DNA from: Pseudogymnoascus verrucosus
Taxonomy: Eukaryota
Strand: one strand, 5' to 3'
Assembly (NCBI GenBank): GCA_001662655.1
Contig: KV460213.1
Length of the DNA stretch: 64,000 nt
This document shows, piece after piece, positions 6,638 through 61,977 of this stretch. How positions within the stretch are numbered: position 1 is the stretch's first letter; every line of letters begins with the position of its first letter. Both the position numbers and the translations under genes were made by a program. The notes beneath the pieces were generated by a model, which did no database searches, was not told where the DNA came from, and saw only the letters and a program-made list of their open reading frames with translations.

Positions 6638-6718
6638 TCCGGTATAGTGTAGGGGTTAACATAACCCGCTTTCAAATTTGGAGCCGGGTAGCCCCGGGTT
6701 CGATTCCCGGTACCGGAA
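6638..6718 (+). tRNA. tRNA-Glu(TTC) with 9-nt intron
   Basis: Acceptor stem TCCGGTA/TACCGGA, anticodon stem ACCCG/CGGGT, TTC at 6671-6673, intron 6675-6683, T-arm GGTTCGATTCC, downstream T-run; 72 nt after splicing. Confidence 0.92.
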
Positions 6719-30412: not shown

Positions 30413-31095
30413 TATGTACAGTATTGTGTGAGTGGGATGGGATGGGATGGGATGGGATGGGCCTGGCGAAGCTTATGGCTGGGTGGGGGGATAATGTATG
30501 TTATTGGGCAGCGGTTTCGGTGTTATGAGCAAAAGGCGTTTACAGAGCGGGATTTTAGCAAAGATGCTTAGATTAATTTATGGAAACACTTCCTCGAAGA
30601 ATGGGTATTGTGTCTTGCTCATCGCTTTGTGTTTAGGCTATCAATGTTTTGTTTCTCAAGCTTAGTGGGCATCCAGGAACATATTTGGGATGATACCCAA
30701 GCTTTGGAAGTCATCTCCTATTTACTCTTTCTCATCCGCTTCGTCTCCTTGGCTCTCATTATTTTCTACCCTAGTTTGGTTTTTAAACCGCATCTTCCTT
30801 CGAAGAAGAAAATCGACTCTTTGCCACCAACACTGAACCATACGAAGCATCCATTCCCCATGGGTTTACGATGCCCCTCTCCGAGACCCCAAGGTATAAA
30901 AAGGCAGATACAACGAAGGGCCGGTTGCTCATTCTATCTTCCAATTGGCGGTTGTTGTTCCTTCTCACATTGAAAGACCAACCGTGCCTTCCCTAGTTCG
31001 GCGGGTTGGTCTTTCGTTCTGCTCTCAAGTAAAGAACGACGCTAACCAAAAATAGCAATGAAGCAAAAAGAGCAAACAAAAACATACAAACAAAA

Positions 31096-31158
31096 ACATA
31101 CAACAGTGGGTATTCGCTGGTGGTCACCCACCCAACTACTAATCCACCGATCTCAAGC
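31096..31158 (-). rRNA. 5S rRNA gene, 3' half (interrupted)
   Basis: Minus strand GCTTGAGATCGGTGGATTAGTAGTTGGGTGGGTGACCACCAGCGAATACCCACTGTTGTATGT followed by a T-run Pol III terminator; typical ascomycete 5S 3' half. Confidence 0.92.
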
Positions 31159-31328
31159 AAACATATGGATAATAGTTAAATCAGTGCCATCCGTCCTAGT
31201 GGGTGAGCCTTGCTGCCCTTGCCCCTTATTTTGTGATCGTTACTATCTCGACCACCTCAACCATCTAAAAGTGGGTCAATTTTTGACGACGCGTTGCACC
31301 GCGACATTAGATGCATGTAGGTTAGCTG

Positions 31329-31426
31329 GGTGAGTGGGTGAGCTGGGTGAGTGGGTGAGCGTGGTGAGCAAGGTGAGTAGGGTGAGTAAGGTGAGTAGGG
31401 TGAGCTAGATGGGTGAGGAAGGCGAG
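31329..31426 (+). repeat. Left subterminal GGTGAG array (10 copies, ~8-9 bp period)
   Basis: Copies counted directly in the sequence. Confidence 0.9.
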
Positions 31427-31698
31427 TATAGCTAAGCTAGGAAAATGGTATAAAGGGCTAGTCTCCTGCCTTCACATTTTAAGGTCCTCTGTCTGCAACT
31501 TTGTCTATTTTTTTAATATTTGCTATAATTGTAAGGATGCCTCCTCCCTCGCGCTCTAGGGATTAGACTGTTGGAGGTAATTGCGGTAAACGGGGAACTG
31601 CACACAAAATCGTGTGAGGGTCTCCGGTCACCGTAATCAGTCTCTACGGGCAGCAGAACAGAGGCTTCACAGTAGGATACAGTATATAGAATAATATA

Positions 31699-31935
31699 AT
31701 CAATTGAATTGCTCACTAAACTACGGGTCTACGTACGCTATTTGTAGGCATGGGGAAACCCCCAAACTCCCTGAAGAATTGCTTCTTCTTCTCGAGTTGG
31801 GGGTGTGAGACTGGGCCGAACGCCCAAACTAATACTCTGACTAACCGGGGAACCAGACAGTCCCATGGAGAAAAGTGGTCATTTTGGGTGCAAAAGGCCA
31901 CCGTATTCTCATGGGATTGTCCGTTTCCCCCAACA
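31699..31935 (-). repeat. Subterminal block X, copy 1 (inverted relative to copies 2 and 3)
   Basis: Reverse complement GTTGGGGGAAACGGACAATCCCATGAGAATACGGTGGCCTTTTGCACCC...GGGGGTTTCCCC...TAGCGTACGTAGACCCGTAG...AATTCAATTGAT aligns with 45160-45330 and 48717-49034. Confidence 0.8.
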
Positions 31936-33010
31936 TAGACTAGGAGCTGTCGCGGTCACGTGATGGGAGTCAGGGCGGGTCAGCCGAGTCGGACCTGCTT
32001 CGGATACCATGAGGGACTCAATAGGGTTCCCCCTTCATCTTTTTTGTATCCTTCGTAGTAGACCTATAGGATTGTACCGCAACCCATCCGACTCGCACTC
32101 CCATATGCTATTGATCGTGAGCTGGTGCCCTGTGTCCTTACATCGCGACTGGCCTAGAACATATGTGTGTCTCACACTCGTTGGAAACCTGCAGAACTTT
32201 TAGCTAAGTGGAACATTATGTACGCGAGCCGTGTATCGTCACACCACATGTCAGCTTATGAGATATTGATTGCAGAATATTTGATATTGCGGCAATTAAA
32301 AAGTAGAAGTAGTATAGCAGCCGCAGATCGAAGCTTCTGTTGTGTGGGTGACAACCGTAGTAAGCTTATAATAACTTTAATCAGATAAAATGACAGTTTG
32401 CAGCCACGGCGAACTAAGCGATTTAGCGCATGTGGCTTTCCCATTTATTTGTGATGAGGGACCGGAGGGGACGATAACGAATAATTCCCCTGCGTGTATG
32501 TGGTACAGAGTATGTTTTTAGGGGCTCGTTTATAGGCATCATTAAGCAAACGGAATAAACCCTACCAATACCTTGCATCCTGATCTATTTTCAATAATAA
32601 TCCGTAAGGTGCATCAATCAATATATGAGTACGCAGGTGACTAATACAGCCTTGGCAGGGCTCGGCTGACCCCCCTACTTAATAAGTAGAGCATTTCTAG
32701 GTCAGCCGAGGCTACACCCCATGGTTAGGTCACCTACGTTCTGTCAATATATGCCATGCGTCGGTGACTATTATCTTGGGGGCATACGGCTCCGTATTCG
32801 TTGGCTAGGGTCGCTAAGCTGCGGCTGACAGCCGTCACTAGATAAAGAACTATAGGCGACAGGAACGGAGGGGGAGGGGATAAATACAAGCTATAAGTAA
32901 TTGTAGTTAGCTGTTTCCATTTCTATTTCCATTGAGTAGGACTCCTTTGCCTGTAAGCTCACTGTTGCCATTTTTACGGCCTACATTCGTTAGTATCAAA
33001 AACCAACATT

Positions 33011-34498
33011 ATGCCTCGCCTATTATCTAGCCTTCTCCTTGCTTTGCTTGGATCCGTGACCAGCACGATAGCATGTACAATTCCTACCACGCCGCCAGGA
33101 AACACCATCCTTGACAAGTTCAGCATTGTTGTTCAGAACCCGAGCATTCCCACAGTGCACAACAAGGTTATGAGATTCAGGGCTAATGGCGACGACGAGC
33201 ATTTGGTGCTGCCCCCTATAGGCGTTGCGACCAACGACGTGCTGTATCTTCAAGACGGCCGTCTCATTTACAATGCGATTCATGCTGTAATCGATCTAGA
33301 GGTAAGATTTCCATAATTACCCCTAGGACGGTGAGTTGAGTAATGTTAAAGCTGACCCTGCTAGTACAACGACCAAGATGATACAACTAAGATGTTCATG
33401 ACTGCACGGGAATACCACCCATCAGCGGTTTTCAAGGGAGAGTATGCTTGCGATCCAGACACGGATGAGCTGCAGATCCAGCTGAAACTGGTTTCTCGCC
33501 TTACTGATCCGCCTGTGCTTGGTGGGCAGATCGGCATACGGGACGCGGTTGGGACATTGGAATTCCGATACTCGCCCCCTGGAAACACCAGTAAGTTGCT
33601 TCTAACCTTTCTTTACCCCACGGGAGCAATTCAAGACACTAGAAATGAGGGGCACATGTGTTGTGATTACTGACACTTATGTTTACCTTACTTAGAGATC
33701 AACAATGAATTTCTGCCCGTTGAGATGGTGATTTTCCGTAACAGCATAAGCCCTACTAGTACCGCTAAGCCTAGCACCTCTACGGCTGCCCCTCTAAGTT
33801 CGACTGTGATTCTAACAACTACTGCTGAACCGCCAACAACCACCGCGGCACTACCAACCAGCACCAGCGTTCCTACGACCCCAACCAGCCCAGTAAAGGT
33901 TGGTGACTACGACTTTCTGTACTGCTGGGCTGAGCCAGCTGCTGGTCGGGCATTTGCTGCTAAATCCACTGCCGCGGACGACATGACCCTCGCGAAATGT
34001 GCGGCCTTCTGCACCGCCTACCCATACTTCGGCACCGAGTGGAGCAAAGAGTGTTGGTGCGGCAACGATCCAGCAACGGGATCTGATTTTGCTCCATTAG
34101 GAGAGTGCGACTACCCCTGCGCTGGGGACGCATCACAATTATGCGGTGGCTCGCGCCGTCTGTCGCTCTACTACAATTCAGCCCTAACCGGTCCCCAGCA
34201 ACCTAAGACCGTTGGCAACTATGAGTTTCAAGGCTGCGTCACTGATAGTCATGGACAGCGTACGTTGACGCAGGATATGCTCGGGAGCGATTACATGACG
34301 CTAGAGACGTGCGCTACTTTCTGTGGTGGCTACACGTACTTTGGGACTGAGTGGAGTACTGAGTGTTGGTGTGGGAATACTCTTACTACAGGCGCTACAA
34401 TTGTTTATGCTGGCCAGTGCAGCATGACTTGCAGCGGCAATAGCGACCAGTTGTGCGGGAATGGAGATAGATTGAGTGTTTACAAGGTGAAAGCTTAG
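33011..34498 (+). CDS. Secreted protein with Ser/Thr linker and two WSC carbohydrate-binding domains
   Basis: Signal peptide; introns 33302-33364 and 33591-33695 keep the frame; two YFGTEWSxECWCGN...C.G.....CG...RLS motifs. Confidence 0.88.
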
Positions 34499-34739
34499 GG
34501 TGTGCGTGGTTGAAGCACAGCTCAGTAGCTACTCAGGTTAAACAGCAATATCTCGGGTCCAAAGATAGAATTAGATATTGATCGTGCCTTTATTTCCGGT
34601 GCCGACTATCCTACTACCATTGGAAACGTTGATAGTTCACTATTCAATTTCTATATAGTTGGCACAAAAAGTTTATAAAGCGTTCAATAGCGCACTTTCC
34701 TTACATTACGCGTAGGCAGAGTCTGATACTGCTTGAGGG

Positions 34740-35735
34740 GAGGAAGACATCCTCGCGCTGGATTGCTGTGAGATTATATGTAGAGCACTAAGAGGCAATG
34801 TACGGAGGAATTTGGATATTTCAAAAGCAACTAACTACTTCGTCCAACGGAAAAAGGTAGAAGGCTCGATGTTGCCTCCTAAACCGTCTGGCATGGATTC
34901 CAGCCAAAGGGGCCGATCAACCGCTGATACTATCAACCGAAAGAGATCATCTAGTTCACTTAACGCGCCCCTACTACCAAAGAAGCGCACTTGCTCCAGC
35001 TCCCCAACAAAAAGGGAGCAAACTCCGTCGACGCATAACCGAATCCGCCGTCGCGTCATTGTCCGCGACTACGGAACACCTATATACAAGGCAAGCTCTT
35101 ATGTCGCCATAATTGCTGCGTTGGAGAGATTTGCGGAGGTAAACAGTGCATTAGCTGACCAACGTAGGATACGAGTCTCTACACGACCGTGGTAGCATGC
35201 TCCAGCGCGACATGTCGATTGGAAACCTTATGATGAACGAGGATGTCGATAACCCTTCCTGGCCCTCATTCTCATCGATCTCGCAATTAAATCGGAGCAA
35301 GAGGAGCCTTCGGGAGCACGAAGCAAGACCGGCACGAAAGCTTTTATAGCTATTAGGGTACTCCTTGGCGAGAATCATTCCTTCATACACGATCTAGAAT
35401 CGTTCTTCTAGGTAGTCTTGTGGATTTGCATCCACTATAATGGGCCGGCTCAGAAACTGACAGTTGTCTATAGGTTTGATAAGTGGAACTTTTCAGATAC
35501 AGAAGAGTTAGCTGAGTCCAAGAAAGGGGCAGTGGTCCATGAAGGAGATTTTAAGAGGATGGTGGAGGAGAACATTAGGCCATACTACAAGTCACTTCAG
35601 CCTTAGCTGAATCGATTACGAAAGGTGGTATTTCCAAACGGCGGGAGATGGAAAAAGGAAGATAGAGGCCTATATTCTCGGATGAAGGAGGTTCTCCGTG
35701 AAGCACAGAGGGACTTGAATGTAGCAGCAGAATAG
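34740..35735 (+). pseudogene. Fungal-specific FunK1 protein kinase fragment
   Basis: HNRIRRRVIVRDYG, LQRDMSIGNLM, RTGTKAFIAI, HSFIHDLESFF*VVLWIC spread over different frames with stops; N-terminus missing. Confidence 0.8.
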
Positions 35736-36019
35736 GTACCACAATATATAAGCGCTCTCTTGAATATTGTTTCTGTGCATGATGCGCTATGTTTCATGAT
35801 ACACAACGTTGGCTAGATACCTCAACTTCTGCTGATGTACTTGGAGGATCAAACCTTCTAGGCCGCAGTCAAATGAAAATGGAGTCAAAAGAGCCTTAAT
35901 GGGCAGTGGGTCTGTTTCTAAACTCAATCTATTTCTGGAGTTCGCACCCCTGTCGCGGCCCTGTTCGTTTGGGGGAGCAAGGCCAGTGCGCACCTTCCCC
36001 AAGTAAAACAAAGATTTAG

Positions 36020-36240
36020 GTCTAAAGTAGGGGCTAAAGCTTAGTATCTTAATAACTATACTACTAGTTGCTTTAAAACTTAGATAAGAAGCTTTAAATG
36101 CCTATAAAAGGCTAAATATACATTTTTATAATTTACTAATAAATAGTTGTTAAGATATTTAGTTACAAAATTCATTATTTTAGGTGTAAAATGGAGATGC
36201 TAACTTGCTTATGGTGCTGACTTGCTTATGAAATACGTTA
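36020..36240. mobile_element. AT-rich relic of a pogo/Fot1-like DNA transposon end
   Basis: Ends in CTTGCTTATG..CTTGCTTATGAAATACGT followed by TA (TIR with internal repeat plus TA target); interior strongly TA-rich, RIP-like. Confidence 0.55.
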
Positions 36241-36909
36241 ATTTATAAGGACTAAGTTTAAATATCGCTCATTTAGTTTTAGAGGTTTAGTAGTTCCATC
36301 TATAAATCATGTAACCTTAGTAAAATGTAATCACCCTATGTTCTACCATTAAACTTAGCCTCTTATGGTTACTTTATAGCACCTCTACTCTTTTAGGGCT
36401 TAGATTACATAGCTCTAACTTATGGCTCACAAATGGCGAATCATCCCAAAAATAGGAGCAAAGCCGCGGGCAGTACTCTAGGGACTGGTAGGCCAGTTGG
36501 GGGGAAGGGGGGGGGAGGGGTTAGTGCTTTGTTAATATGGGAAAGAGAGCGATGCTGCATGGGTGTTTTTGTAAGCAAACAAAGGTGGTGAAACGCTCTG
36601 ATCGACTCAGCAGAAAGAGTCTTCGGGGTTCGCAAGGTTGGGATACATAGGTATATTGAAGGCTAGCCTACTTGAGGCACCTTTATTTTCTCTTATTTAA
36701 ACTTCCCAATACTCTCAAAAACACTACATATATCTCCTTTATCCTCTCTGCTGCCCATAAATATCGAAATCTAACCAAATATGCCCGGCACAATTATCAT
36801 AACGATCAGTTTATATATATATGAATTACAGGTATATAGTTCATGAACAACTTGCACCCTCCCTCTTTCCTGACTCCCTTCCTTTTCCAACTCCCTCTTC
36901 GGGACAGAT

Positions 36910-39900
36910 CTAACTACACTTCTTAATAATCTTATCGATCTTAGAGGTAAGATTATTAAGAAGTGTAAAGACATTCCCCAGCTTAGAGACATCATCGACA
37001 GTCATAGCACGACGCAGCTTTCCCAGTTTCCCAAACTGCTCCCCCTTACCTATAGTGCCACCGCCCCCAACACCGAGCAAATCGGCAAAGATAACCATGG
37101 GTGCGCTCTTGGGGTCCTTGACAATGCTAAAGATGTCCGCGGCGCCATTAGACAGCATGCCAATGAGTCCAATGGCGCCAGCCAGGTCAGCGAGCCCCGC
37201 GATATCCGCGCCGAGGCCGCCTACAAAGGGAACAACTATCAGCACTGCGGTGATGATCTCCAGGATCAGCTTCTGGCGGTCGGCGTTTGACTGCGCCTTG
37301 CTGATTACCTTGACCTGCGCAAGGGAGTCGATGGCCTGCTGGATCATGGCGATGGGCATGGCGAGCACCTGCGCTGGGTCCGTCCCCGAGCCTTGCCACT
37401 GCCCGAGTATCTGGTTCATCCACGTGGAGTCGATGGTGGACTGCAGCATGGTCATGTTGGGCAGAGCGGCAGTGACGATGTCCTTGGGGTTGGTGGGATT
37501 GACGTTGCCAGAGCCCTGGGGGAGGCCCTTCCAGTAGCTGTATATGCCACTCTGGTGACCATTCACCGTTGGCGGGGGGAAATCTTTGTCGCCGAAGGAG
37601 ACCCAGTCGGCAGAAATTCCGTAGTTGGCGGAGAGGTCCGCGTAGAAGCCGGTCGAGTTCTTGAGATCGAAAAGGCATGTAGCCTTGGGATCCGAGCTCA
37701 ATCTGGTCAAAGGGGCAGGTCTGTGTGGTGCGGTTTACTCCTTGGACTTGCCATGTGCAATCAAAGTACTTGTTACCAGGGCCGTCGACAGAGTTCATGA
37801 AATGGGCTATCGCGTTGGGCACCTCCTCCTTGATGGCCTCGACGTAGTAGCCAAAGAGACTGTCGTAGTCGTTGTCAACGCTGGTGTAGTTTGCAAGGGC
37901 GGCAGCGAGCTCCTTGGAAAGGGCATTCACAGTGAAGATCTCTGCGCACTGCTTGGCGATCGAGCCCACGGCAGCGACGACATCGTCAAGGTTATTGTAG
38001 TTCTTGGTGAAGTCGCAGGGGGGCACGACGCCGTCGTCGCCGTCGTCGGTGCCATCGGACTTGGAGCCCTGCGAGTAGTCAAAGACGAGGTCTATCGCCC
38101 AGTCCACCGATCCGCCGGTATGGTATTGCCCCCAGTAAAAAAGCCGCGCTGCATATGTCCTGTCCGCCACGTACGAGACCCACTGCGTGTCGTCGTACAC
38201 GAGGATGTCGCCGTTCAGGAGCTCGTTGTACCCACCCCTGGTAAATGATTCGCCTGTATGATCCTTAAGCAGCGTTATATTCCTGCTGCCGTAAAGATCC
38301 GGGGAGTTGGCTGAGCTGATGATCTGGTTGATTTCATAGTTGGATATATACCCGGATGTATTGGTGCAAGGCCCTGGCGTCGCGCCAGACTCTGGCCCTG
38401 TAGATAGGCACTGCGGACCTGTGCATCCAGCCTTTGCCATCTCGAAGCTTCGGCCATAGCGGGCCATACCGATCACGACCTTGTTCAGGGGCACGCCGGC
38501 CTTGGTGATCATAGAAATGGCGTAGTAGGTCTCAGTGGAGTTGGTGTGTGACCGCAGACAGTTGCCATTCTCGCAGTCCTCGTTGACGAATTTGTTGGCA
38601 TAGTCCCATTGCCCATGAAGATCGTATGTCATGTAGACAATGTAATCGACAACTTTGCTTATAGAAGCAATAGGGAAATTCCGCAGATACCAGTACGACG
38701 CCGGCGCCGCGATGCTTACCGTCCTACCCGCAGGCAGCGCCGCCTTCACGGACTTTAGGAACGCGAGGTAGTTGACGCCATCTTGAGGAGTTCCCGGTTC
38801 GGCTCCCTTGATATCAGTCGCACCAGGGTACTCCCAGTCGAAATCTAGACCGTCAAGGTTATACTTGTTAAGAAACTCAAGCAGACTTTTGACAAATGTG
38901 GCTCGTTGAGCATCCGTAACGCCCGCATGGAAGATTGGGGACGTATCGGCATCAGTTGAAAAAGACCAGCCGCCGAAGGACATGATACGCTTAGTGCCTT
39001 TAAGAGCGACAAAGTTGGCAAATTTCTCTGGGTAAGTGCTGACATCTACTTGAAAGTCTGCAGTAATAGAACCGAAGGCATAGTGGACGTAGTTGTAGAT
39101 GCTGGTGTCGATATCAGACGGGTTCATATGAAGGCAGGCCCGGTCGGCGCTAAACGCCTCAAAGTATGCAATCCTCCTGTATGCGACATCTGAAGAGGCG
39201 CCTTCAATAATGTCGACGCCGCAGTCAGAGATACACCCATAGGTCCCTACGGCAGCTGTTCCAGGGGCCTTTGTTGTCGAGTTGGTTATAGTGCAGAACT
39301 CTGGCGTTGTCCCGCACTGTCCCCATATATCGCAGCAGGAGTTCAGTGGACAGGGTTCAGACTGGCTAGTGTAGTCCCTTTCGCCGGGGCTTTGGTCCCA
39401 GGGACTTGAGGCCCGCAAATGGTGCCAGCAACAGGCGCCGGCATAGGCGGAGTTCCTGTGCTAAGACATATGTGCTGACCAAGCTGGAGGTCGCCACAGC
39501 CCATCCAACCCCATGTATTTTTGTTGACAGCCTCGATATTGGCTGTCGTAGTATGGTGGGCAGTGGCGATAGTGTTGCAGATATCGTGTTGCAAGATTGT
39601 GTAGGAGAAGCAAGAGCCGTCTGCGCCCGGCTTGGGCGAGAAATCTGGCAGGGTCCCGGTTGAGCAGCATACGTACTGGTTAAGAATGATAGGCTTGGTG
39701 CAGAACGATGCCCCGCCATTGTAGCTCTCCAGTTGGGCCTGGGTGATTGCGCAGCGTGCGGCCAACGCATAGCAACCGTCCCCAGCCCCTGCCTGTGTAT
39801 ACTTGCAGGTTGCGCGTGCGACGAGGCCACTGTTAGTTTCGCTTTCACCATCTGAGGGCGCAGGCGTAATTTTGATATTGGAGCCCGGGATCGTGCTGAG

Positions 39901-40734
39901 AGACACGTCGGGCCACGTAGAGCTCCTGTCAAAGCCATCGAGACACTGAGCTCGGCTCCAGCTTTTCAGAGCTTCTTGCACGGCCGAGAGACTCCCAGGT
40001 AGCATCTGCAAATACACCAAAGATATCGATAGCTGAGGAAGACGCTTCACCACCGCATAACTGGGCAGCAGAGCGGTCACGAGCATTTGGGGGTCTGGAG
40101 CTGGTATCTTTGGCGAACTTGTCGATGAGGCTTGCAGCACTTTCCTTCTCCACCTGTGAGCCAACGTGGACACCCACGATGGCTCCTCTGTAAGAAGATA
40201 GAATTATGCGCCCTCCGCACGTTGCGTCGCTGCTGAGATAGTGGCTCAACTGCTCGGCGGCTGCAGCGACATCCCTAGCGGTAGCAGCGTCCTCAGAGGG
40301 TCCTTCGCTGTCCCACCATCCCAGCTGGACGTTGACCCTAGTCTGCAGTACACTATTGCCGCATGGCGTGGTTACAGCGGAAACCGTGTGGAACTTGTCG
40401 TCATTGGAGGTGGTATTGTAGGAGAGCTGCTGTCTTGAAGTGAGCTGTCCACCCCGAGCCGCCACTGCAGCTTCGGGATTCGAACAGGCCCGGAAGGTGA
40501 GGTGGGTATTGGCATCATCCACTGGGTTGTGGACGTTGAGGTCTAGCAGGAACCTCTCGTCACAGCGGGTCAAGACCCTTGTGTTGTGGTAGTAGGTCCA
40601 GTTGCCCGGATTTGGCCCTGATTTACTACATGGTAAGGGACAGCGAGACCGCTGGGCATCAAATGTCTGGCCGTGCGCTGAGCCGGACAGGAAGACCACG
40701 GACAAGACCGCCAGGCAGGATGTTATCCGCCTAT
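36910..40734 (-). pseudogene. Killer-toxin-like (subgroup C) GH18 chitinase with LysM and CBM18 domains; frameshifted
   Basis: Signal-peptide-like segment lacking an in-frame ATG; two LysM; CBM18 CPLNSCCDIWGQCG; GH18 DGLDFDWEYP; hydrophobic C-terminus; frameshifts near 39975, 39355 and 37675. Confidence 0.85.
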
Positions 40735-42115
40735 AGGGGTTCGCAAAAAGTGATTGAGACCCTATAGTTGTAAAACAAAATGAAGTCTACTCCCACAATC
40801 CGAGATGAGGGGACGACAGATTATTATAAGAATGAGTTTAGAGTGTGTAGGTCAAAGAAATTGTCTTCAGATCTGCCTGGTAGGAGGGGAGTGGCTTTGT
40901 ACATACTAATAAATGAACGCCTATATAAACTTCGTTACCCACAGATAGACATTTGATTGGTAGTTGCTGTTACTTGCTGTCGCTGTTGGGGGCAAAGTAG
41001 TCTAAGTCTGCTCTACTGTTCTCACAAGGTGCTTGTCCCTGTCTGCAGTTCCTAGCCGACTTTTAGACCACTTATTACATTATTATCGCGCGAACAGAAC
41101 AGAATACGACGTAACCTCTACCTATTTGTTATACAAAGTGATAACTTTGCCACAATCGAGACGGTGAAGTGCCTTGAGCAGCTGCCTAGGTAGGATATAA
41201 CTCCGACTGCACCACACTCCAACAATAGATCGTTCTGTCGCGGAATAAAGAATTGACATGTGTTCTGTAGTACTAATTGTAAAAGAGACTTCGGGCCCGG
41301 AGGCACAGCACGCCGAATTGCTTAGTATAGTAGTGTAGTGCTTAATGCTTGCTACTATCAGTCGCAAAGTACTATTCTCGGCCGGCCCCACCTTCTTGTA
41401 TGGCTTTACCACATTAGAGTGATTGGTGGCCCTGATTCTTTAACCCAGCATAATGTTTTTGCAAGCGTTTTCATTGTGACAGGATCTCCAGGCGTCCAGT
41501 TGGTCGAACTGGGATATTCTACGCTAGTCCTAAGGCATGAGGGACCAGCTAACCTTAAAAAGCCAAGATTGCCAAGTGTTTGGAGCTATCCACTCTAGAC
41601 CCAACAGTGACGGAAACGTCAGGGGCCACGATCGTCCATCGCGTGAGCTAATCCACTCTCGGGCCAACAGATTACAAGGGCCCAAGATTGCCAACAGCTT
41701 AGGCTAGTCTACTTAGAAGGTTAAGCCCACATCAGGTGGGACTGATAGGATCACAAAGGATCACTGAGAGCTTAAATAGTAGATATGCCCGACGTAATGC
41801 TGCTTTTAAGCCGACTTACGAGTTTTACATAGGTATATACTCGAAATTAGAGAGAAAGAAATAGGAAGGAGAAGGGAACGGAGAGTGTTGGTTCAAAGGG
41901 TTACGAGCAACGGCATCTTATTTGCACGAAAGAGAAGAGGAAAGATGTGCCTGCCTTGCCTCCCCCCTCTCCGCTCAACTGTTTCTCACTTCTGTCCGCC
42001 TCTCACTCTCTCCCCCTTATCTCAACCATCTCCCCCACTCCTCCCCTCTGTTCTATAGTCAATAGTAGCCTCCCCTTGAGAGACACTCGAGAGACGAACT
42101 CTCAGCACGCCCACC

Positions 42116-43285
42116 ATGAAGCTACTGTATCTCTTGAATATCCTGTTCCTTGTTACTCTAGGCCTCGCGTCCACCCTTGCCGGCCTCTACTAAACTGTCT
42201 TTTTCTGGCATGCCTATTAGTTGGAAGTGCTTCAGTATGGACCTAAATCAACTCTTACTGTCAAGGGCTGCAAAGGGTCAGCGGCTGGGGGAGGTTGCTA
42301 CGTATGTTATCCATGCCCCCTAAGATGCCCCCTAAGAGGAGAAGAGAAAAAGATGAACATATAGGCATTTTGCTGTACCCCGCTGCATTGTTCTACCTTG
42401 CCTATAATGTTGCAAAAGAAATAGAGGCTGATAAACCTACTTAAGAGTTTAATGAATTTATCAAGTATATCGAGAGAACAGGAAAAAAAACTGGATTCTA
42501 GGGAAGCACTAGTGTAGGCATGAACCTGACCCCCGATGTTCTGGACACGGTGAAAAAGCTCAACGCGGCCGGTTACAAGAACCAGCTTGAGCCTGGAAAG
42601 CTGCTCCCAGATAACTTCAACATTGCCGACTCACCAAACTTCCAAAAGATGATGGGACCTATTATGAACAACATCGACGCTACGCGCCTGGCCATGAAGG
42701 ACGAGACAGGAAGTATACAGCTTGCCAATATACAGGTTGCCTATAAGTCTTCACACTCTCAATATTTGTCTCCTCTCTTCTCCTTAGAGAAGATGGCGGC
42801 TGTGACAGTGATAGTGACGGTGACTGTGGCTGTGACTGACTTTGCGTATTGCAGTGAAAGGGGTCTTAGATGGCTGACTGGAGGAACATAGAGGCCAAAT
42901 GCTCGAGGCATTCAACGGGTTCAAGGCTAAGCTGGGGCTTACATTCACCAACGAGTTTTCGGAGCACACGGCCCTAGACGGCCATAAATACCAGGTTATA
43001 GATCCAGAAAAGATGGTAAAAAGTAACCCGAGCATCACGCAAAATATCAAGGGTTTGATTTCTGGGTTCCCCGCATAGTAAGGCCCCTGTCCTCCCTCAT
43101 ACGTCTTAACCGAACAAGTCATAGACTAGGGTTTACTATTCTGTATCAACTAACCATAAAACTATCATAGCTATAACTCGCTGGAAACAAAGGTAGACAA
43201 GGGCGCCAGCCATCTCAACGCCATCCAAGCCACTTAAGGCTTCATTATCTGGGTGTTTGACGACCCTAAGGTGTGTAGCACTTGA
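42116..43285 (+). pseudogene. Small secreted Cys-containing protein divergent from the chitinase; multiple premature stops
   Basis: MKLLYLLNILFLVTLGLA signal peptide; introns ~42302-42446, ~2 more to 43170; in-frame stops at 42191, 42218, 42499, ~42875 and 43235; ends ...HLNAIQAT*GFIIWVFDDPKVCST. Confidence 0.7.
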
Positions 43286-43779
43286 AAACGGGTGAATATT
43301 GGAGGTATAGACGGGATTCAAAGTTTCGTACAGGGATCCATATAGTAGATCATAGTGTAATTATATTATGTGGATGATTTGAGGGAGGCGCTGTCGCCGT
43401 CTAGTGATACTTTCATTTCTAGATCGGCGCCGTTGGCTTAATTGAAACCAAAACTATAAGCTTGAACGCGAACATATCGGTAGACGAGGTGGAGTAATAA
43501 TTCCGGTGCTAGATTAGAAGAAAGATTAGAAGAAAAGTGAAGATAAATATTCAAAGTCGTAATGGTGGTGGTGATCCAATCTTGGGTCTCTAAGTTAGTG
43601 ATTGCTCCACTTAACCCCGCCTACCGTTTGTCCCCAGGTCTCATCCTTCCTTCTTTAACATTCACGACGGCGACAATATCACTAGGCTATTTCTAAAAGT
43701 ATCACATAATTAACCAGAATTAGAGTACCGTCGTCTCTTTCTGCTACACGCCAACTTACACTCACCAGCACCCGGGGTG

Positions 43780-44973
43780 ATGACTACGATTAGCTCCACA
43801 CAACAGCAGCTGCCTGTACAATCATTTCCCCTATTCCCCCGGCTTCCTGTCGAGCTGCAGCGCCGCATCTGGGAGCTGTGCCTACCCGCGCGCATTGTTG
43901 AGCTGGACCTGCAAGGCACCGACATAGTTCCCACGTCGTGCAGCCTACAGCAGACGTCGCAGATCAACAGTCGCGCCTCGCTAGCCACCCGGATTTGTAG
44001 GGAATCGCGCAGCGTTGCCTTTCTCGCTGGCGCCACGGAGCTATACGACGACGACTTCCAGCGCAGCGACACCCCAGAATGGGAGGCCATGAACGACATC
44101 CGGGATCTCTGGGCATCCCCGCCCACTGACGTGCTGCACCTCAACTACTATGGCGCTTACGATGGCTATTACCATTGGAGCGGCAACCCGGTGGAGTTTC
44201 TGATATGGTTAGCCCGCCGTTACCACATGCGCATGTCTATTGTTGCGTCGTTACTAGTGGGATTTGGCGATACCGAGGGCGCCGAGTATTTGTTCGGATT
44301 CGACAAGAATTTCGACTTGCTCGCCGAAGGTGGCGGGCCATACTTGACCACCCTGTGCGTGGTTAGCCTGCACGTCGGTTTAGAATCTGCGCTGTGGAAG
44401 GATGGGGGGATGTTGTTTGGGCGCTTGGGAGAGGAGCGCGTGAAGCTCATTAAGGTGGGCGATAAGGCCGCGCTGAAGGCGTATTACAACCTCTGGGCCG
44501 CGGGGCCGGTCGAGGATCGCGAGCCGGAGCAGTTTTTTGACTTGGCCGTGAGTAGGCACGAATCCGAGTGGCTACCCCGAGTGGCGCAGTGGAGGCGGAG
44601 GCTACTAACAACGTGGATGAATCACTGCTGGGCGAAAGCGGAGGAGGCGAACGAACTTGGGAGCATCCAAGACCACCAGGGGGTCTGGCGTGCGCCGAGG
44701 AACAATGAGGGGAGGATTATTCCAAAAGGCGATTCGGGTCCCTTTTCACATTATATGAGGCCGGGGCCTGGGTTGGGCGGTATGAGGACGCGTGTGCCAA
44801 ACGAGGAGCATCCGTGGGTCGCGGGGGGATTGAGAGACATGCCGTGCTTCGAGCCGGTGGTCATGTTCCGGCTCTGCGAAGATAAGTGCTACGCTCCTAA
44901 GCCACAGCGTACGAGAGGTTTGGGAAGAGGAGGGCTGGGTATTAGGGGACAATCGTCGCGAGGTTCTGTGTAG
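43780..44973 (+). CDS. 2EXR-domain protein
   Basis: N-terminal SFPLFPRLPVELQRRIWELCLPARIVEL and ...ICRESR motif; intact 397-aa ORF. Confidence 0.78.
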   Translation: MTTISSTQQQLPVQSFPLFPRLPVELQRRIWELCLPARIVELDLQGTDIVPTSCSLQQTSQINSRASLATRICRESRSVAFLAGATELYDDDFQRSDTPEWEAMNDIRDLWASPPTDVLHLNYYGAYDGYYHWSGNPVEFLIWLARRYHMRMSIVASLLVGFGDTEGAEYLFGFDKNFDLLAEGGGPYLTTLCVVSLHVGLESALWKDGGMLFGRLGEERVKLIKVGDKAALKAYYNLWAAGPVEDREPEQFFDLAVSRHESEWLPRVAQWRRRLLTTWMNHCWAKAEEANELGSIQDHQGVWRAPRNNEGRIIPKGDSGPFSHYMRPGPGLGGMRTRVPNEEHPWVAGGLRDMPCFEPVVMFRLCEDKCYAPKPQRTRGLGRGGLGIRGQSSRGSV

Positions 44974-45159
44974 TGCTCACTGCAATTACAATCTGAGTAC
45001 GTAACTGTCACAACCGTTATTATTGCCATAGCGGTGAATATTATGTCGCTGTCCAATCGCCCGAATTTACTAAAACGTCGCTGTCCAATCGCTCAGCCCT
45101 CGCTCAGTCGTCGCTGCCTTCGCTGGTGTCTCTCAGTCGTCGCTCAGCTGTCGCTCAAT

Positions 45160-45330
45160 TTGTTGCGGGAAACGGACATTCCCGTGGGATACGGTGGGCT
45201 TTTACGCCCAAGATAACGGGTTATCCCCGTGGGACCGTCCAACTTCCCATTTGAGACAGTGGCTTCTAATGGTATGGCGCCACACATCCAAAACCCAACT
45301 GAGCCTCGAAAGCCCAACTTATCAGGGTTT
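45160..45330 (+). repeat. Subterminal block X, copy 2
   Basis: GGGAAACGGACATTCCCGTGGGATACGGTGGGCTTTTACGCCCAAGATAACGGGTTATCCCCGTGGGACCGTCC...TTATCAGGG. Confidence 0.8.
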
Positions 45331-45408
45331 TGGCCAAACTTCGGTGTTGATACGAAAATGACGCGAAAGCGAAATTGACGCCAAACTGACAGGAAAATGT
45401 TGCTTGGC

Positions 45409-45480
45409 CTCACTCACCCCGCTCACCCCACTCACCCTGCTCACCACCCGGCTCACCCTGCTCACCCCTCGCCTCACCCT
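45409..45480 (-). repeat. Right subterminal CTCACC array (7 copies; inverse of the left array)
   Basis: Copies counted directly; ~9 bp period. Confidence 0.9.
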
Positions 45481-45551
45481 TCAGGCGGCAAGGGGCAGCG
45501 ATTCCACGCTATGCCTATTAGCACGATTGGGACTATTAGCTAGAGGATACG

Positions 45552-45612
45552 CAAGCTTGTGTATGGCAGAGCGGACGGGATGCCCAATTCTCTGCCGTCT
45601 GTGATCGCACCC
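45552..45612 (-). rRNA. 5S rRNA gene, 5' half (interrupted, partly diverged)
   Basis: Minus strand GGGTGCGATCACAGACGGCAGAGAATTGGGCATCCCGTCCGCTCTGCCATACACAAGCTTG with the conserved CATCCCGTCCGCTC; joined to 31096-31158 gives 119 nt. Confidence 0.85.
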
Positions 45613-46450
45613 GCGCTAAGACCACCACTAAAACCGTCCCCCGTTGTCAGCCTCCCGCTTCCGTGTTCCCGCTCTTAGACCATTGCTGCATTTTACTTGC
45701 ACTGCCACTAGGCACGTCCATCTTTCCTGTGGCGACCCCCTAAGCGACCTAAGAGCGATTAAAAACGCGAAACGGTTGGCTAATTCCGAAATCTGCCTCG
45801 GGCCTCTCGAAAGGCCGCATCCTGTGTATCCGATCACGACAGCGGCTTCGTGGCAACGGGGGATGGTTGACTGTGCTTCGATGCTTTTTCTTGTACTGCT
45901 CATCTAGTTCTGAAAACTATCCAAGGCCTAGAGTCTATGTAACCTCTGATCTGACACTAGAGCCTCGTAACCGACAGCAACCCGACAAGCGCGAAAACCG
46001 TTGACTTGTTCATACTATCGACTCAGCTTGATCTCATCTAAGATTAGTTCTCTAAACTTCTTCATTCTCTAAGTTTTACCACGATTATACGTAGCTAAGA
46101 GTCTACACTCCTGACAAAATCTGTCGGACTGTCTCAAAGTCAGGACTAGGTGTGACAACAACATGTCTGAGGCCATGGCGCTAAACAGCCGTCAATCTGC
46201 CTGACAAGTGCAGCTATTTTCGTCGATATGCCTTGCCTTGCAGTTCGCCTTACTTTTACGTTTTACACTTTCGCCTCACCGAAGTGCACGCTAGTTCTCT
46301 ATAGAACTGAAGCAGTTGCAGAGCGTTATGCTACCTACATAAGTACTTTGGCTCGCCCACTGCCAGCGGCGGTCAAGTGCAACATCTTGATAAGTTCACA
46401 GCGCATGTACATTTTCTCACGAACACATCAGTGAGATGGCAAGGTCAGCC

Positions 46451-48491
46451 ATGACAACCACTTCAGAATTGACATTCCCGGTTAGCCCCGAGTTCGACCC
46501 AAAGGAGCGAATTCTGGTATGCTGCATCTTTATCTTGGGTTAATCCGACTTGTGCCCAGAGTGTTAATAGTTGTTTTGTGATATGTTAGGATCACTTTAG
46601 AGTGATGCGAAAGTTCAAGGGTATCTTTGACGACACAGAGAAAGCCGGCGCAAACGAGGCTCTTTACCCAGCACCTCCGCCCGGCGATTTAGGACTGGAA
46701 AAGAACGCTGGGTGGAGAGCACAATGCCTTTTGATGAGCGCCGAAATCCGCTACCCGATGTATTTGCAACTTTTAGAAAAATGGGTAACCGCTCACGGCA
46801 CTGCAACTAAGGATGAGTGGCCGCTCCCACCATGGTAAGATTGATCCGGATTCCAGAACTACTTCTATATGTATTCATATTGGAGTTTTTGCTTATTCTC
46901 CTATGGCAGGGACGTGGCCATCATATTCTATGCGCATCTTCTTTCACCATTCAACTTTCAGCGCGACATAGAATCAAATTTCCCAAAGCTCTGGCAGGCA
47001 GAGATTGAATTTCCATTGGCAAGGATGGCATCGTCCAACACAGACGAGGCCAGCAAACGCGCATGGATGAAAGAGTACCCCAAAATTCCTTACGATATCA
47101 TCGCGTTCCGTGATGGAGGCAGCCAAACATACGTTACTTCGAAGAACAACATGGACATACAAGGCTACATATGCCGCTCATGGAGGTGCAACAAGAAAAA
47201 GACCTATGCGATCCCCATGGCAGACTGGGCCAGATACAGAGTCGCACAGACTAGCCTCACATGTCCAGGCTGTAGAACGAGCTTCTCTAGATATGGACGC
47301 AATCTGCAAGACAGGGTGGTGCGGTATTCCCGCGAGGAGTTTGGATACCCAGTCTTCAACTTATGGGAGAGCCCACAACGACAGTTTTGCAAGTCAGGCT
47401 TTGTGGACCGCATCCTAGACTTAGACGAAACTTATATCCTGGCGCCATCTACCGTCTCCCGCTACCTGAACTTCTTGCAGCTCATGAAGGAGAAGCAATC
47501 CATACTGGTACCGACGCTCGACATTGACCTTTTCTGGCACACCCACCAACTCTCGCCGGCTGCCTACCACGCCTACTGCAAGAGGCACATAGGACAGCGC
47601 ATTAACCATGATGACACAATCCGCACGGGGATGCGTTCTACGGCACAAGACATGACGGCCCATCTCTGGACCATGAAATACAACGAGTCATACTTTGCTC
47701 CGGGAAATGATGCGAAAATGGCTGATATCCAACAGCAAAGGGATGCATGCAAGCAGAAGAAGCTCGACAATGTAAAGGCGCTGGCCGCTTTCGACAAAAA
47801 CAACAAGCATATAAAAGATGCGCTAGACAACGCCTACAGCAGCATAGTGCAAGAAGAATCTGAATTGCGTAAGGTACGAGGAACGGCACGCGCTATACAA
47901 TCGGAACTTACTGCCGCCGAGGAAGCCCGAGATGCCGTCAAACCGACAATACGACTGTTTAAGCGGCGTTACTACCGTGGGCTACTGCGATTCCAGGTGC
48001 AACGGCACGAGGGTACGTGCCGTCGGCTGAAGGAAGACTATAGACTCAGGCAGCAGGAGATTGAGAGGCTCGATAATATCATCTGGGATTCCACACTTCC
48101 AGAACAAGAACGCTGCCAGAAGGAGTGGGAGGTCGTGAAGGAGAGACGAGGTACGTTGGAAAAGTCGCTTCAGGCCAGTTTGGATCGAGAGACATTGGCC
48201 ATTGGACATCCCAAAGACCCCAAAGATCGGTATAACGGATCATGGTGTTCTATCGTGCCATCCGAGGTGCAGCACAATAATTTCCCCATTATGAGCCCAA
48301 GCCACATGCACACGCATGCTGGTCACAGTTCTGGCGGAGATGGAGGTGCTTTTGGTTTTGGTTGTGGTTTTGGCTGTGGAACTGGCTGCGGGAGTGGATG
48401 TGGTGGAGGCTGTGGGGGAGGCTGTGGGGGAGGCTGTGGCGGAGGTTGTGGTGGTGGTTGTGGGGGCGGTGGGTGTGGAGGAGGTAGTTAA
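46451..48491 (+). CDS. Glycine-rich domain-containing protein (GRDP/DUF1399-like) with coiled coil and (GGGC)n tail
   Basis: Motif RYLNFLQLM...LVPTLDIDLFWHTHQLSP; introns ~46518-46589 and ~46835-46909; Gly/Cys C-terminal repeat. Confidence 0.82.
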
Positions 48492-48716
48492 GCCGCGTTT
48501 GTTCGTTGCGATTCTGACGATTTACCATGCTATTTATGCCTGAAACGTAGTAATATCTTTATTGGCAAATTTGTACACAGATTTTACAGAATAGCTATTG
48601 CTGTGTTCCATTGTTCATGTCTAAGGCCGCGGGTGCTAACGCTGTGGTTGAGTTCGTGTCTGTTCAATTGGATGTTGTAAAGGGGCGTCACGTGAGGACG
48701 CCTTCACGTGCAGGAT

Positions 48717-49034
48717 TGTTGGGGGAAACGGAAATTGTTGAACTAGCAAAAGTGAATCAATCCACTTCTGCTGTAGTTCTTATAGTCGGTTTTATTACAA
48801 CAGAAATCCGCGTGGGATACGGTCGGTTTTTACGCCCAAATGACGGGTTATCCCCGTGGGACCGTCCAGTTCCCAGTTGGCTTGCGAGTGAGACAGTGGC
48901 GCCATACTATTGGAAGACACTGATCCAAAGCCCAGCTGAGCCCGGAAAGCCCAGTTTATCAGGGATTTGGGGGTTTCCCCCAGGACTACAAGTAGCGTAC
49001 GTAGGCCCGTAGATTAGGTTGTAATTCAATTGAT
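48717..49034 (+). repeat. Subterminal block X, copy 3 (with ~70 bp insertion)
   Basis: CGTGGGATACGGTCGGTTTTTACGCCCAAATGACGGGTTATCCCCGTGGGACCGTCC matches copy 2; GGGGGTTTCCCC...TAGCGTACGTAGGCCCGTAG...AATTCAATTGAT matches copy 1. Confidence 0.8.
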
Positions 49035-49977
49035 CTGTAGAATTCGTGTGTGGTCCCCGTATTCCGGTCCTCCCACCAACAGACAAGGATGATATCCAAG
49101 TCCACGTGATAACGTGATAATCCAACTGACTGACACCTCTCTGGACAATCAACTTCTAGACAGCCGATTTACCGTTTCCGGGATTTGGAAAGACGACTTC
49201 CAACATTGGAAAACAGAGGACTTTATACGATAATTGTAATACTTACTACAGTAGTTGTCTACCTTGCAAAGCGCTAGCTCGTACATCTTCCCGTTTTGCG
49301 ATGGCCGTGTACGTTTGGCCGTTTCGTGCGGTGGTGTTGTCAGATAAAAGCAGCATTGGCCTCAGAACCGTTCACGCGATACAGCAATTGGTTATCAAGT
49401 TTCCATCAACAGAAGTCTCAAAGTTGTTGCATTCAGCGACCATCTCCGGCAGAAATGCCCAATTCTCTTGAGTCTATGGTCGTATGTGATTGTTCTTTGA
49501 GTTTGGCACAATATAAGGGGTGATAGGTTGGGACGTCAATGTGTAGGTATAGAAGCAGAGACATCGTTAGGCGCCGGCAAGAAGGAGGTTAGGGTAGTGG
49601 CAAGAAGGAGCAACGACAGGAAGGAGCAAACGACAGCATAAGTAACAAAGGGGAGGGGTTAACACGGCGAGATCTAGATGCTGCGTCTAACAGTACCTGT
49701 CTCCACAATGCCGCTTGCGATCCCTTATCGAAGGCATTTTTGCACCAATCCCGCGGAAATTATCGAAGCCACAACATCTTCCATCCCCTCTGTGCCGCTG
49801 TGCCACCACGTTCGTCAGGAACAGGAGCTTTGTCGTGCACGATGTTGATAAAAAAAATCGCGTGAGCGAGTTTTGAATTTTATAAGGGTGGAAGCTTGAC
49901 TCAAGACCCAGGTAGCGCGAGGCCTATAGGTGGTGCAGGGGGGACGATGGCATTCAACAATGATATGCTGTCCCTAA

Positions 49978-61644: not shown

Positions 61645-61742
61645 CGGGGACGCAGATACAACCCAAGTATAGGGGAATATCAGATTTGTGGACTATTGAA
61701 TCCTAGATATTCCCCTATACTTGGGTTGTATCCGCGTCCCCG
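61645..61742. repeat. 37-bp inverted repeat (1 mismatch) with 24-nt spacer
   Basis: Arms 61645-61681 and 61706-61742. Confidence 0.92.
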
Positions 61743-61977
61743 TCCATTCCCCGGCTCGGGGAAACATTTCCTCTGTGTCGGCACAGTCTATCTGGGTCTA
61801 ACCTATATTATCTTCAACCGTGCCCTCCACGTCGTTAGCTGAAAATATAGTGCCTTTGTATTAAGCTCTGTTTAAGGCTTCCGGGTTCCTTCATCAAGCA
61901 TCTCATCCTCAACTCGTTTCCCTATGATTACAAGACGGTTCATATTTCGGACCCAACAAAAATTTCATACCTAAATT

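Follow-up and report, generated by a model that had tools for sequence, protein, structure and literature searches.

What are the two mirror-image termini that lie 14.4 kb apart near the middle of this stretch of DNA, and what do they do? The stretch, referred to as the window, comprises 64,000 nucleotides of contig KV460213.1 of Pseudogymnoascus verrucosus (assembly GCA_001662655.1). A sequence-only reading of the left terminus (31159-31426) and its right counterpart had proposed core and arm-type recombinase binding sites of an element family targeting 5S rRNA genes. Our analysis identified the region 31154-45556 as a captain-less derivative of a 5S-targeting Starship. With a probability of roughly 0.8, the feature is the end pair (attL and attR) of a derelict Enterprise-like Starship in a 5S gene, the interpretation of its outer repeats as core sites included.

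A captain-less element in a split 5S rRNA gene

The main element interrupts a dispersed 5S rRNA gene on the minus strand, which it breaks at about +57 to +61. Comparison with an intact 5S copy of the same genome revealed three identical pieces on the minus strand, namely the 3' half on the left flank (31095-31158, core repeat included), which also gave a partial Rfam 5S match, a middle piece (45552-45593), and the 5' end (49455-49487). This bears out the 5S context assumed beforehand. The split gene was missed by Rfam at the gathering score and was recovered at an E-value of 0.4 and by identity to intact copies. Two other small features of the window are a tRNA gene with an intron (6638-6718) and a near-perfect 38-bp inverted repeat resembling a MITE-like hairpin (61645-61744), with Rfam miRNA matches below the gathering score.

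The pentamer CAAGC is found on the plus strand at both element junctions (31154-31158, corresponding to 5S positions of about +57 to +61, and 45552-45556) and once in the intact 5S gene, as is characteristic of the direct repeat of a Starship. It presumably represents the strand-exchange core. Sequencing runs contained joints from intact 5S copies, which overlapped by 5 letters for the main element (four of four runs) and by 14 letters for a second element. These empty-site joints stem from the multi-copy 5S genes; an empty allele specific to this locus was not seen in the runs. Cargo of the locus was present at about 99% in three other runs and partially in a fourth, which argues for an old insertion. 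Cover of the chitinase cluster was missing in one run, and contigs cannot turn missing cover into absence. The window copy is an immobile relic, whose captain was lost at some time after its ancient insertion into the dispersed 5S gene.

We ruled out that the two flanks are different 5S variants, because the 5' part of a single gene is interrupted by the second element. This unrelated, captain-less Starship-like element (45594-49454) is bounded by a 14-bp direct repeat (45580-45593 and 49455-49468, 5S +20 to +33). Its cargo includes an ORF of 548 aa (46845-48491) with a GRDP-like match and a 12-bp tandem repeat at the ORF end. The second family occupies the same position, which is that of Voyager, at six further loci (L124, L127, L129, L138, L114, and L151) and shares 5S genes with the main family at other loci as well. 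It has its own tandem junctions, subterminal repeats of about 90 bp, and linkage to a different DUF3435 captain. A stop-free DUF3435 segment (L113:2845-3597, G000:C46), adjoined by a DDE-type transposase ORF, is identical to a database protein of 592 aa; judged from this predicted reading frame, the captain of the second family may still be intact in this genome.

Family members and their outer ends

Genome pattern searches detected at least 46 left and at least 67 right ends of the main family, with no match of the control patterns; these counts are lower bounds, since some ends detected by BLAST miss the patterns. An automatic rule placed 34 of the 46 left ends next to the 3' half of a 5S gene, 7 directly behind a right end, and 5 in the category 'other'. 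By eye, the latter comprised two ends in degraded 5S genes, two without a terminus, and one that was unreadable. The 67 right ends comprised 49 abutting the 5S 5' half, 8 preceding a left end, 3 beside an intact 5S 3' flank, 6 'other', and 1 unreadable case. The genome thus contains 7 to 8 right/left tandem junctions. Insertion into 5S always occurred in the same orientation. A right end on the same strand within 35 kb was found for 20 of 46 left ends and one on the opposite strand for none; most of these paired elements span 3-15 kb. An RNA-family search gave 43 5S matches among the 47 candidates scored, from which it follows that broken 5S copies are about as numerous as the intact ones found. 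The postulated 5S-targeting family does exist, and its recombinase is the DUF3435 captain encoded behind sister left ends.

Several loci deviate from the simple arrangement. In one 5S gene (L084-L085, G000:C33:132729-145122) three captain-less units with alternating arm types and different cargo follow each other in tandem. At four loci (L083:5404-5606, L093:5829-6016, L092:90-290, and L145:494-690) right ends of one type are followed by the 5S terminator flank and a 3' half, leaving the junction 5S intact. Related cases are L106, L098, and L196. For two of the 5S-restored loci the matching left end follows a further 3' half, and no part is missing. The intact junction 5S reflects either a 5S-restoring variant or a repair that gene conversion has propagated from one right end to another. 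At a further locus (L184) the arm is partly replaced by 5S sequence.

The motifs previously noticed in the window ends were located where they had been placed. On the left these are TAATAGTTAAATCAGTGC (31170-31187) and GCTGCCCTTGCC (31212-31223), and on the minus strand of the right end TAATAGTCCCAATCGTGC (45538-45521) and GCTGCCCCTTGCC (45499-45487). Their distances from the CAAGC repeats, 11 versus 13 nt and 53 versus 52 nt, hold as well. The delimitation of both motifs had to be revised. The true inverted arm begins further out than motif 1 (31160-31174 and 45534-45548), TAATAGT being its inner part. Motif 2, of 12 or 13 nt, is present in the window, but family-wide only GCCC(C)TT is common to both ends.

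Anchored comparison of the window ends and a family consensus of 37 left and 47 right ends revealed an imperfect TIR of about 31 bp, an optional feature of Starships, which is offset by 1 and 3 nt from the direct repeat. The segment 31170-31190 (plus strand), which includes motif 1, is its inner part on the left. A conserved left block (31184-31223, plus strand; 46 genome matches, control 0) contains one GGTGAG (31202-31207) and the GCCCTT motif. Its right counterpart (45487-45538, minus strand; 67 genome matches, control 0) contains motifs 2 and 1. The outermost 15 bp form the core-site arms, which were defined from the geometry of right/left junctions and an arm table. The left arm (31160-31174, plus strand) is of an A2-like type and the right arm (45534-45548, minus strand) of type A1, with 10 of 15 positions identical.

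Seven right/left junctions consist of a 15-bp arm, a 9-bp spacer holding CAAGC (or CGAGC/TAAGC), and the inverted arm. The spacer length refers to arms drawn by eye, and 5 bp of the spacer, 3 of them invariant, are common with the target. Folding of one junction produced a stem closed by a 9-nt loop (z -2.86), and 2 of 200 shuffled sequences folded equally well. Judged by its sequence, such an arm-spacer-arm arrangement is how a circle junction would be expected to look.

The outer, variable 10 nt of the arms fall into four types, which were assigned by eye. The two ends of one element agreed at 7.2 of these 10 positions compared to 4.5 of 10 after shuffling (14 pairs, p = 1e-5), in a test that counts related copies as independent and that started from 16 paired elements, of which two were dropped because the right end abuts 5S flank and two were registered by hand. 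Typed by eye, 12 of 14 elements carry the same arm type at both ends, the window copy being one of the two mismatches. Since its own arms differ in type, the window copy may be a chimera, i.e. a fusion or a converted copy. Several tandem junctions also unite different arm types, which speaks for integration at a pre-existing att site rather than for duplication. With the arm-9 bp-arm geometry at tandem junctions and the co-variation of arm types between ends, the outer inverted repeats show the behaviour expected of core sites.

Hexamer arrays, captain and cargo

Further inside, motif counts and TRF confirmed ten exact GGTGAG copies on the left (31329-31417, plus strand) and seven inward-facing copies on the right (45413-45478, minus strand), with a period of about 9 at both ends, in addition to the single copy at 31202. 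In the whole window the hexamer occurs 52 times compared to 33.75 +/- 6.0 times in shuffled sequences, none of 100 shuffles reaching 52. A triple-GGTGAG pattern had 151 matches genome-wide and a control pattern 39. Among the 100 matches listed of these 151, we distinguished 46 clusters. An end motif is found within 400 bp of 23 of these clusters (71 matches), a zone that makes up about 0.3% of the genome, and all 23 face inward. Three further clusters among the matches listed were recognized as end remnants on inspection, and most of the remainder resemble simple repeats of other periods. The arrays are therefore enriched at element ends, unlike a common simple repeat. Two remnants of left ends consist of arrays and a TATA box without arms (L196:5700-6170 and L144:300-700), one of them just upstream of an intact 5S gene.

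Three or more exact hexamers are present in 23 of the 46 left ends and in 27 of 66 right ends; the other 23 left and 39 right ends have fewer than three, many of them being truncated or mutated. Copy number varies from 3 to 15, and 125 of 209 array steps measure 9 bp. Hexamer positions are 83-97% conserved compared to 42-71% for the spacers, figures that were obtained by anchoring on one half of the hexamer and scoring the other and that contain some circularity because array extents were set by exact hexamers. Two subfamilies with captain genes of only about 65% likeness have both retained the hexamer arrays. In most copies the right array starts 80 or 92 bp from the junction. Among 15 left ends, the array precedes a TATA box by 22 bp in seven, by 11 bp in six, and by 31 bp in one, and in one no TATA box was found. 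The proposal of core and arm-type sites is supported for the core. The arrays are not established as arm-type sites; among other things, the left array is phased to the TATA box of the captain. Splice donors as an explanation of GGTGAG were set aside, the left array being located upstream of that TATA box.

In the window element, a domain scan and a search for captain matches detected no captain, the first gene of an autonomous Starship. This absence, like the second element in the same 5S gene, had escaped the sequence-only reading. A TATA box (31449-31454, plus strand) is left 22 bp behind the array, with the same spacing as in sister ends leading into a captain. Alignment to the captain-bearing left end of subfamily A from a metagenome (320 of 374 columns identical) stops two bases into the start codon (31528-31529, plus strand), beyond which the gene is gone. 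The following LTR-like repeat (31530-32142) has 7-bp inverted termini and unmatched flanks, and within it a solo-LTR-like repeat (31569-31935) with TG..CA ends and a 5-bp duplication is nested; both have many genome copies. These sequence features suggest that LTR-LTR recombination removed the captain. Copies or fragments of one multi-copy LTR-like repeat are found at the captain breakpoint (31569-31935), at the edge of an 8.86-kb insertion (45161-45333), and in the second element (48799-49039). They may have mediated both the gain of cargo and the loss of the captain.

The genome contains 19 DUF3435 matches, three of which begin directly behind sister left ends and face inward. A DUF3435 captain as first gene was found in these three sister copies and in two metagenome contigs. 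The three sister captains carry many TAG/TAA stops and have a TpA/ApT index of 1.09-1.50 compared to 0.66-0.85 in a host gene and two cargo regions, a pattern as would be expected from RIP. Every cognate captain found in this genome carries stops. Homologues of the sister captains are named Pseudogymnoascus proteins. Summed HSPs gave 61-71% identity of one sister captain to four proteins listed as fam06, including 70.5% to KFY94199.1. According to the cited part of the starfish supplement, KFY94199.1 is among four fam06 proteins in Table S4, and fam06 is the Enterprise family (PMC11162782). By predicted protein identity, the sister captains match Enterprise-family proteins.

A metagenome scan yielded 5 loci from 155 pattern matches. 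Two contigs of one public metagenome assembly show the 5S junction, arms, arrays (10 and 8 hexamers), and a TATA box before captains of subfamilies A and B. The B captain, on contig RCNJ01000714.1, has open exon frames and keeps the H-x-x-R motif, which is altered in the A captain. A captain named from Claussenomyces (P0009 versus P0004/P0008) is 72.5% identical to the subfamily-A captain and nearly as close as Pseudogymnoascus proteins, a likeness compatible with possible horizontal transfer. Directly upstream of the start codon of a more distant captain (L203:1-325 and L204:1-157) lies a 39-bp tandem repeat of the 5' leader, the element end not being on these contigs.

At their C-terminus the captains carry a conserved module of three C2H2-like units with invariant Cys/His residues. 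It was found in the sister captains and in 631 relatives, several of them fused to DUF3435, and agrees with the zinc finger of the Enterprise family. Pfam scans found nothing in the C-terminal part and no CHROMO domain. The fold of a natural homologue of the module was predicted with confidence (pLDDT 84). Foldseek returned no match at E <= 0.001 for this model, its weak top rows being C2H2 arrays, and the best VIA-align result (ZIC3 fingers, Z 3.5, rmsd 3.6, 74 aligned) was too weak to be used. Canonical C2H2 fingers read G-rich DNA with an Arg/His/Lys pattern. This pattern is missing in the fingers of three close sequences, and the positions concerned vary across 60 relatives. Three fingers cover a footprint of 9-10 bp, which would fit the array period.

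Accessory cargo, another trait of Starships, is present in the window element. It comprises a DUF7909 and WSC-domain gene (exons within 32957-34498, plus strand) with an 82% paralogue elsewhere, a fungal protein-kinase fragment (34737-35195, plus strand), a LysM/chitin-binding/GH18 chitinase cluster (36910-40786, minus strand), and a 2EXR-domain gene (43714-44973, plus strand), all identified by domain scan. A piece of the right subterminal region of the family (36247-36467, plus strand) lies 8.86 kb away from its continuation at 45332. The joint 36467-45332 was found in four of four runs, and 8.86 kb of the window element thus sit within the right subterminal region. Sister elements carry other cargo, including NLR-like, MFS, GMC oxidoreductase, SDR, and sulfatase genes (Pfam, 100 of 143 ORFs scanned). 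In this genome no cargo was shared between any two of 37 segments compared, and neither amplified captain-less copies nor one captain-less unit at two or more loci were found among them. The sulfatase/hydrolase cargo of a captain-less type-A unit (L101:2956-4494 versus L206) is 77-90% alike to that of a captain-bearing type-B metagenome element, which indicates cargo exchange between subfamilies.

Mechanism, alternative readings and related systems

In the mechanism we propose, the DUF3435 tyrosine recombinase would join both ends into a circle with a junction of arm, 9-bp spacer with CAAGC, and inverted arm. This geometry is taken from the tandem junctions observed here, and the captain presumably binds the arms. 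It would then recombine the circle junction with the matching 5S spacer in a single orientation, resulting in CAAGC at both sides as observed. Hybrid sites would stay usable, so that further elements, also of other arm types, could insert in tandem; the junctions were observed, and their order is our inference. The inward GGTGAG arrays would provide repeated sites for one sequence-specific protein as part of the mobilisation apparatus. With cognate captains stop-ridden or deleted in this genome, what remains would be relics of 3-15 kb, each carrying between one and a few accessory genes.

Subterminal repeat arrays are typical of CACTA/hAT/Mutator-like elements. The ends could on this ground be assigned to a DDE-type transposon or MITE, or the arrays to generic simple repeats, but we regard this as next to impossible. 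DUF3435 follows the left end wherever a gene is kept, and this captain linkage already refutes the assignment. The arms are moreover offset by 1 and 3 nt from the junction, insertion is one-directional and into one site, and the arrays are end-specific. A Crypton was ruled out likewise, the linked recombinase being DUF3435 and inverted arms being present. Rather unlikely is the view that the captain-less elements of 3-15 kb are mobile non-autonomous cassettes moved in trans instead of relics decaying in place. At least 20 elements have kept both ends, intact genes with Pfam matches are found inside, captain-less units form tandem arrays at one 5S site, and trans-complementation by a captain is known for Hephaestus from the cited part of PMC10104507. 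Yet no captain-less unit occurs at two loci, the 37 segments have no cargo in common, breakpoints vary among copies, and the window copy is fixed in related organisms. Besides, the cargo of one cassette is 89% alike to that of a captain-bearing element elsewhere, a likeness that a deletion product would show. The simpler interpretation is that the elements decayed where they stand.

With respect to the arrays, we tentatively assume, at a little less than even odds, that they are accessory arm-like sites for the captain and that the left one also overlaps the captain promoter and gives autoregulation. It is also possible, at somewhat longer odds, that they represent upstream activating sequences for a putative host transcription factor. 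The left array would drive the captain, and the right one would join in only in the circle and boost expression for reintegration. The distances of 22 or 11 bp to the TATA box equal one or two helical turns in two subfamilies, the variable copy number suits an enhancer, and the captain zinc-finger residues do not indicate binding to G-rich DNA. Right-end DNA also raises captain promoter activity in the Hephaestus circle, but this effect, in the cited part of the report, required at least 699 bp of right-end DNA (10.64898/2026.09.21.753150), and here the array is located at 80-150 bp from the junction. A recombination scaffold would be equally consistent with the constant starting position of the right array. 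An explanation with neither captain nor host transcription factor as partner is doubtful. The larger share of this probability falls to arrays that are structural or neutral, in themselves an improbable case, in which slippage-expanded G-rich minisatellites, possibly forming G-quadruplexes or excluding nucleosomes, would descend from an ancestral long inverted repeat without any specific protein. Copy number does vary freely, tandem turnover homogenises units, and the canonical four-G-tract motif occurs in 22 of 53 arrays, including the left one of the window. It is missing in 31 of 53, including the right one, conservation of the third G of the tract reaches only 66% compared to 83-97% for the hexamer, and the hexamer is kept although period (9 versus 10) and spacers differ between subfamilies. 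A single long inverted repeat as common ancestor of both ends could by itself account for the inward symmetry of the arrays. A more far-reaching version of the captain-site reading is, as a whole, unlikely: the captain zinc module would bind the arrays both as arm-type sites and as an autoregulatory operator, in the manner of bivalent integrases such as lambda Int, and dispersed 5S genes would be genome-wide att sites that gather captain-less 3-15 kb cassettes in tandem, some right ends restoring 5S like bacterial tRNA-targeting islands.

The repeats and TIRs of Starships presumably act in excision and integration, which the cited part of the starfish paper describes as not yet demonstrated (PMC11162782). 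More than 100 diverged ends and natural right/left junctions in one genome amount to a base-level map of 15-bp arms, 9-bp spacer, conserved block, hexamer arrays, and TATA phasing. Natural arm variants in the genome lend themselves to swap tests, and the question of Starship cis-sites becomes one of specific mutational tests. With the mapped end anatomy, a minimal system for 5S-specific integration in fungi would be defined, and the way in which captain expression is coupled to excision could come to light. Annotation that relies on captains overlooks many small gene-carrying relics within 5S genes. The surprise is limited in that the family, the 5S target, and decayed ends were known and the window copy is dead.

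Att sites of lambda-type integrases and of tRNA-targeting elements have inverted cores that enclose a short overlap, accessory sites repeated more internally, and tandem accretion at one small-RNA gene. The family described here shares inverted cores, inner repeats, and tandem accretion, with arm-type binding being putative. Unlike in those systems, the arrays are long, variable in number, and inward at both ends, and the target gene is normally broken, not restored.

Within the Starships, the cited portions of the literature already cover 5S-targeting Enterprise-family elements, short repeats, TIRs, orphan or decayed ends, circles, and captain-less Derelicts. Hexamer arrays in a subterminal position, arm types that co-vary, and ends that restore 5S were not found described in the literature searched; curated end alignments in bioRxiv supplements may bear on this. 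Term searches in the accessible parts of PMC12289983, PMC13465315, and PMC12256816 gave nothing on subterminal arrays. The cited accounts of 5S-targeting Enterprise-family Starships do not contain subterminal hexamer arrays, arm types, or tandem junctions (PMC11162782, PMC12153272), and a search for CAAGC as a direct repeat in 5S was negative in the portion of the starfish supplement that precedes the manually curated tables (PMC11162782). One tandem Starship is on record in the part cited of 10.1101/2025.02.28.640899.

According to the cited sections, Enterprise of Podospora and its orphan ends bufo and schoutedenella resemble our family in multi-copy ends after internal deletion, small degraded copies, reinsertion beside an older copy, and a captain zinc finger, and differ in having no TIRs, a palindrome target, and no arrays reported (PMC8092012). 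Hephaestus, the only element for which the cited part demonstrates the circle (10.64898/2026.09.21.753150), is alike in its tyrosine-recombinase captain, the circle at the direct repeat, and the right end meeting the captain promoter (PMC10104507; 10.64898/2026.09.21.753150). It belongs to another family, targets TTAC, and in the same part its cis-sites are not mapped below kilobase flanks. Two elements of Macrophomina are comparable in the portion cited (10.1101/2021.12.13.472469). Voyager inserts 20 bp from the 5S start, like the second element of the window and unlike the main one at +57 to +61, and Derelict is a Starship without a captain, like the window copy. The 5S Starships of the Enterprise family, e.g. 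Osiris of Aspergillus fumigatus, agree with our family, as far as the cited sections describe them, in an inward DUF3435 captain as first gene, fam06 homologues, one-orientation insertion into 5S, and a short direct repeat, and GH18/LysM-type cargo as in the window element is listed there for other Starships too (PMC11162782, PMC12153272). The window copy differs from them in its length of 14.4 kb, its lost captain, and a 5-bp repeat compared to the 6-16 bp published in these sections.
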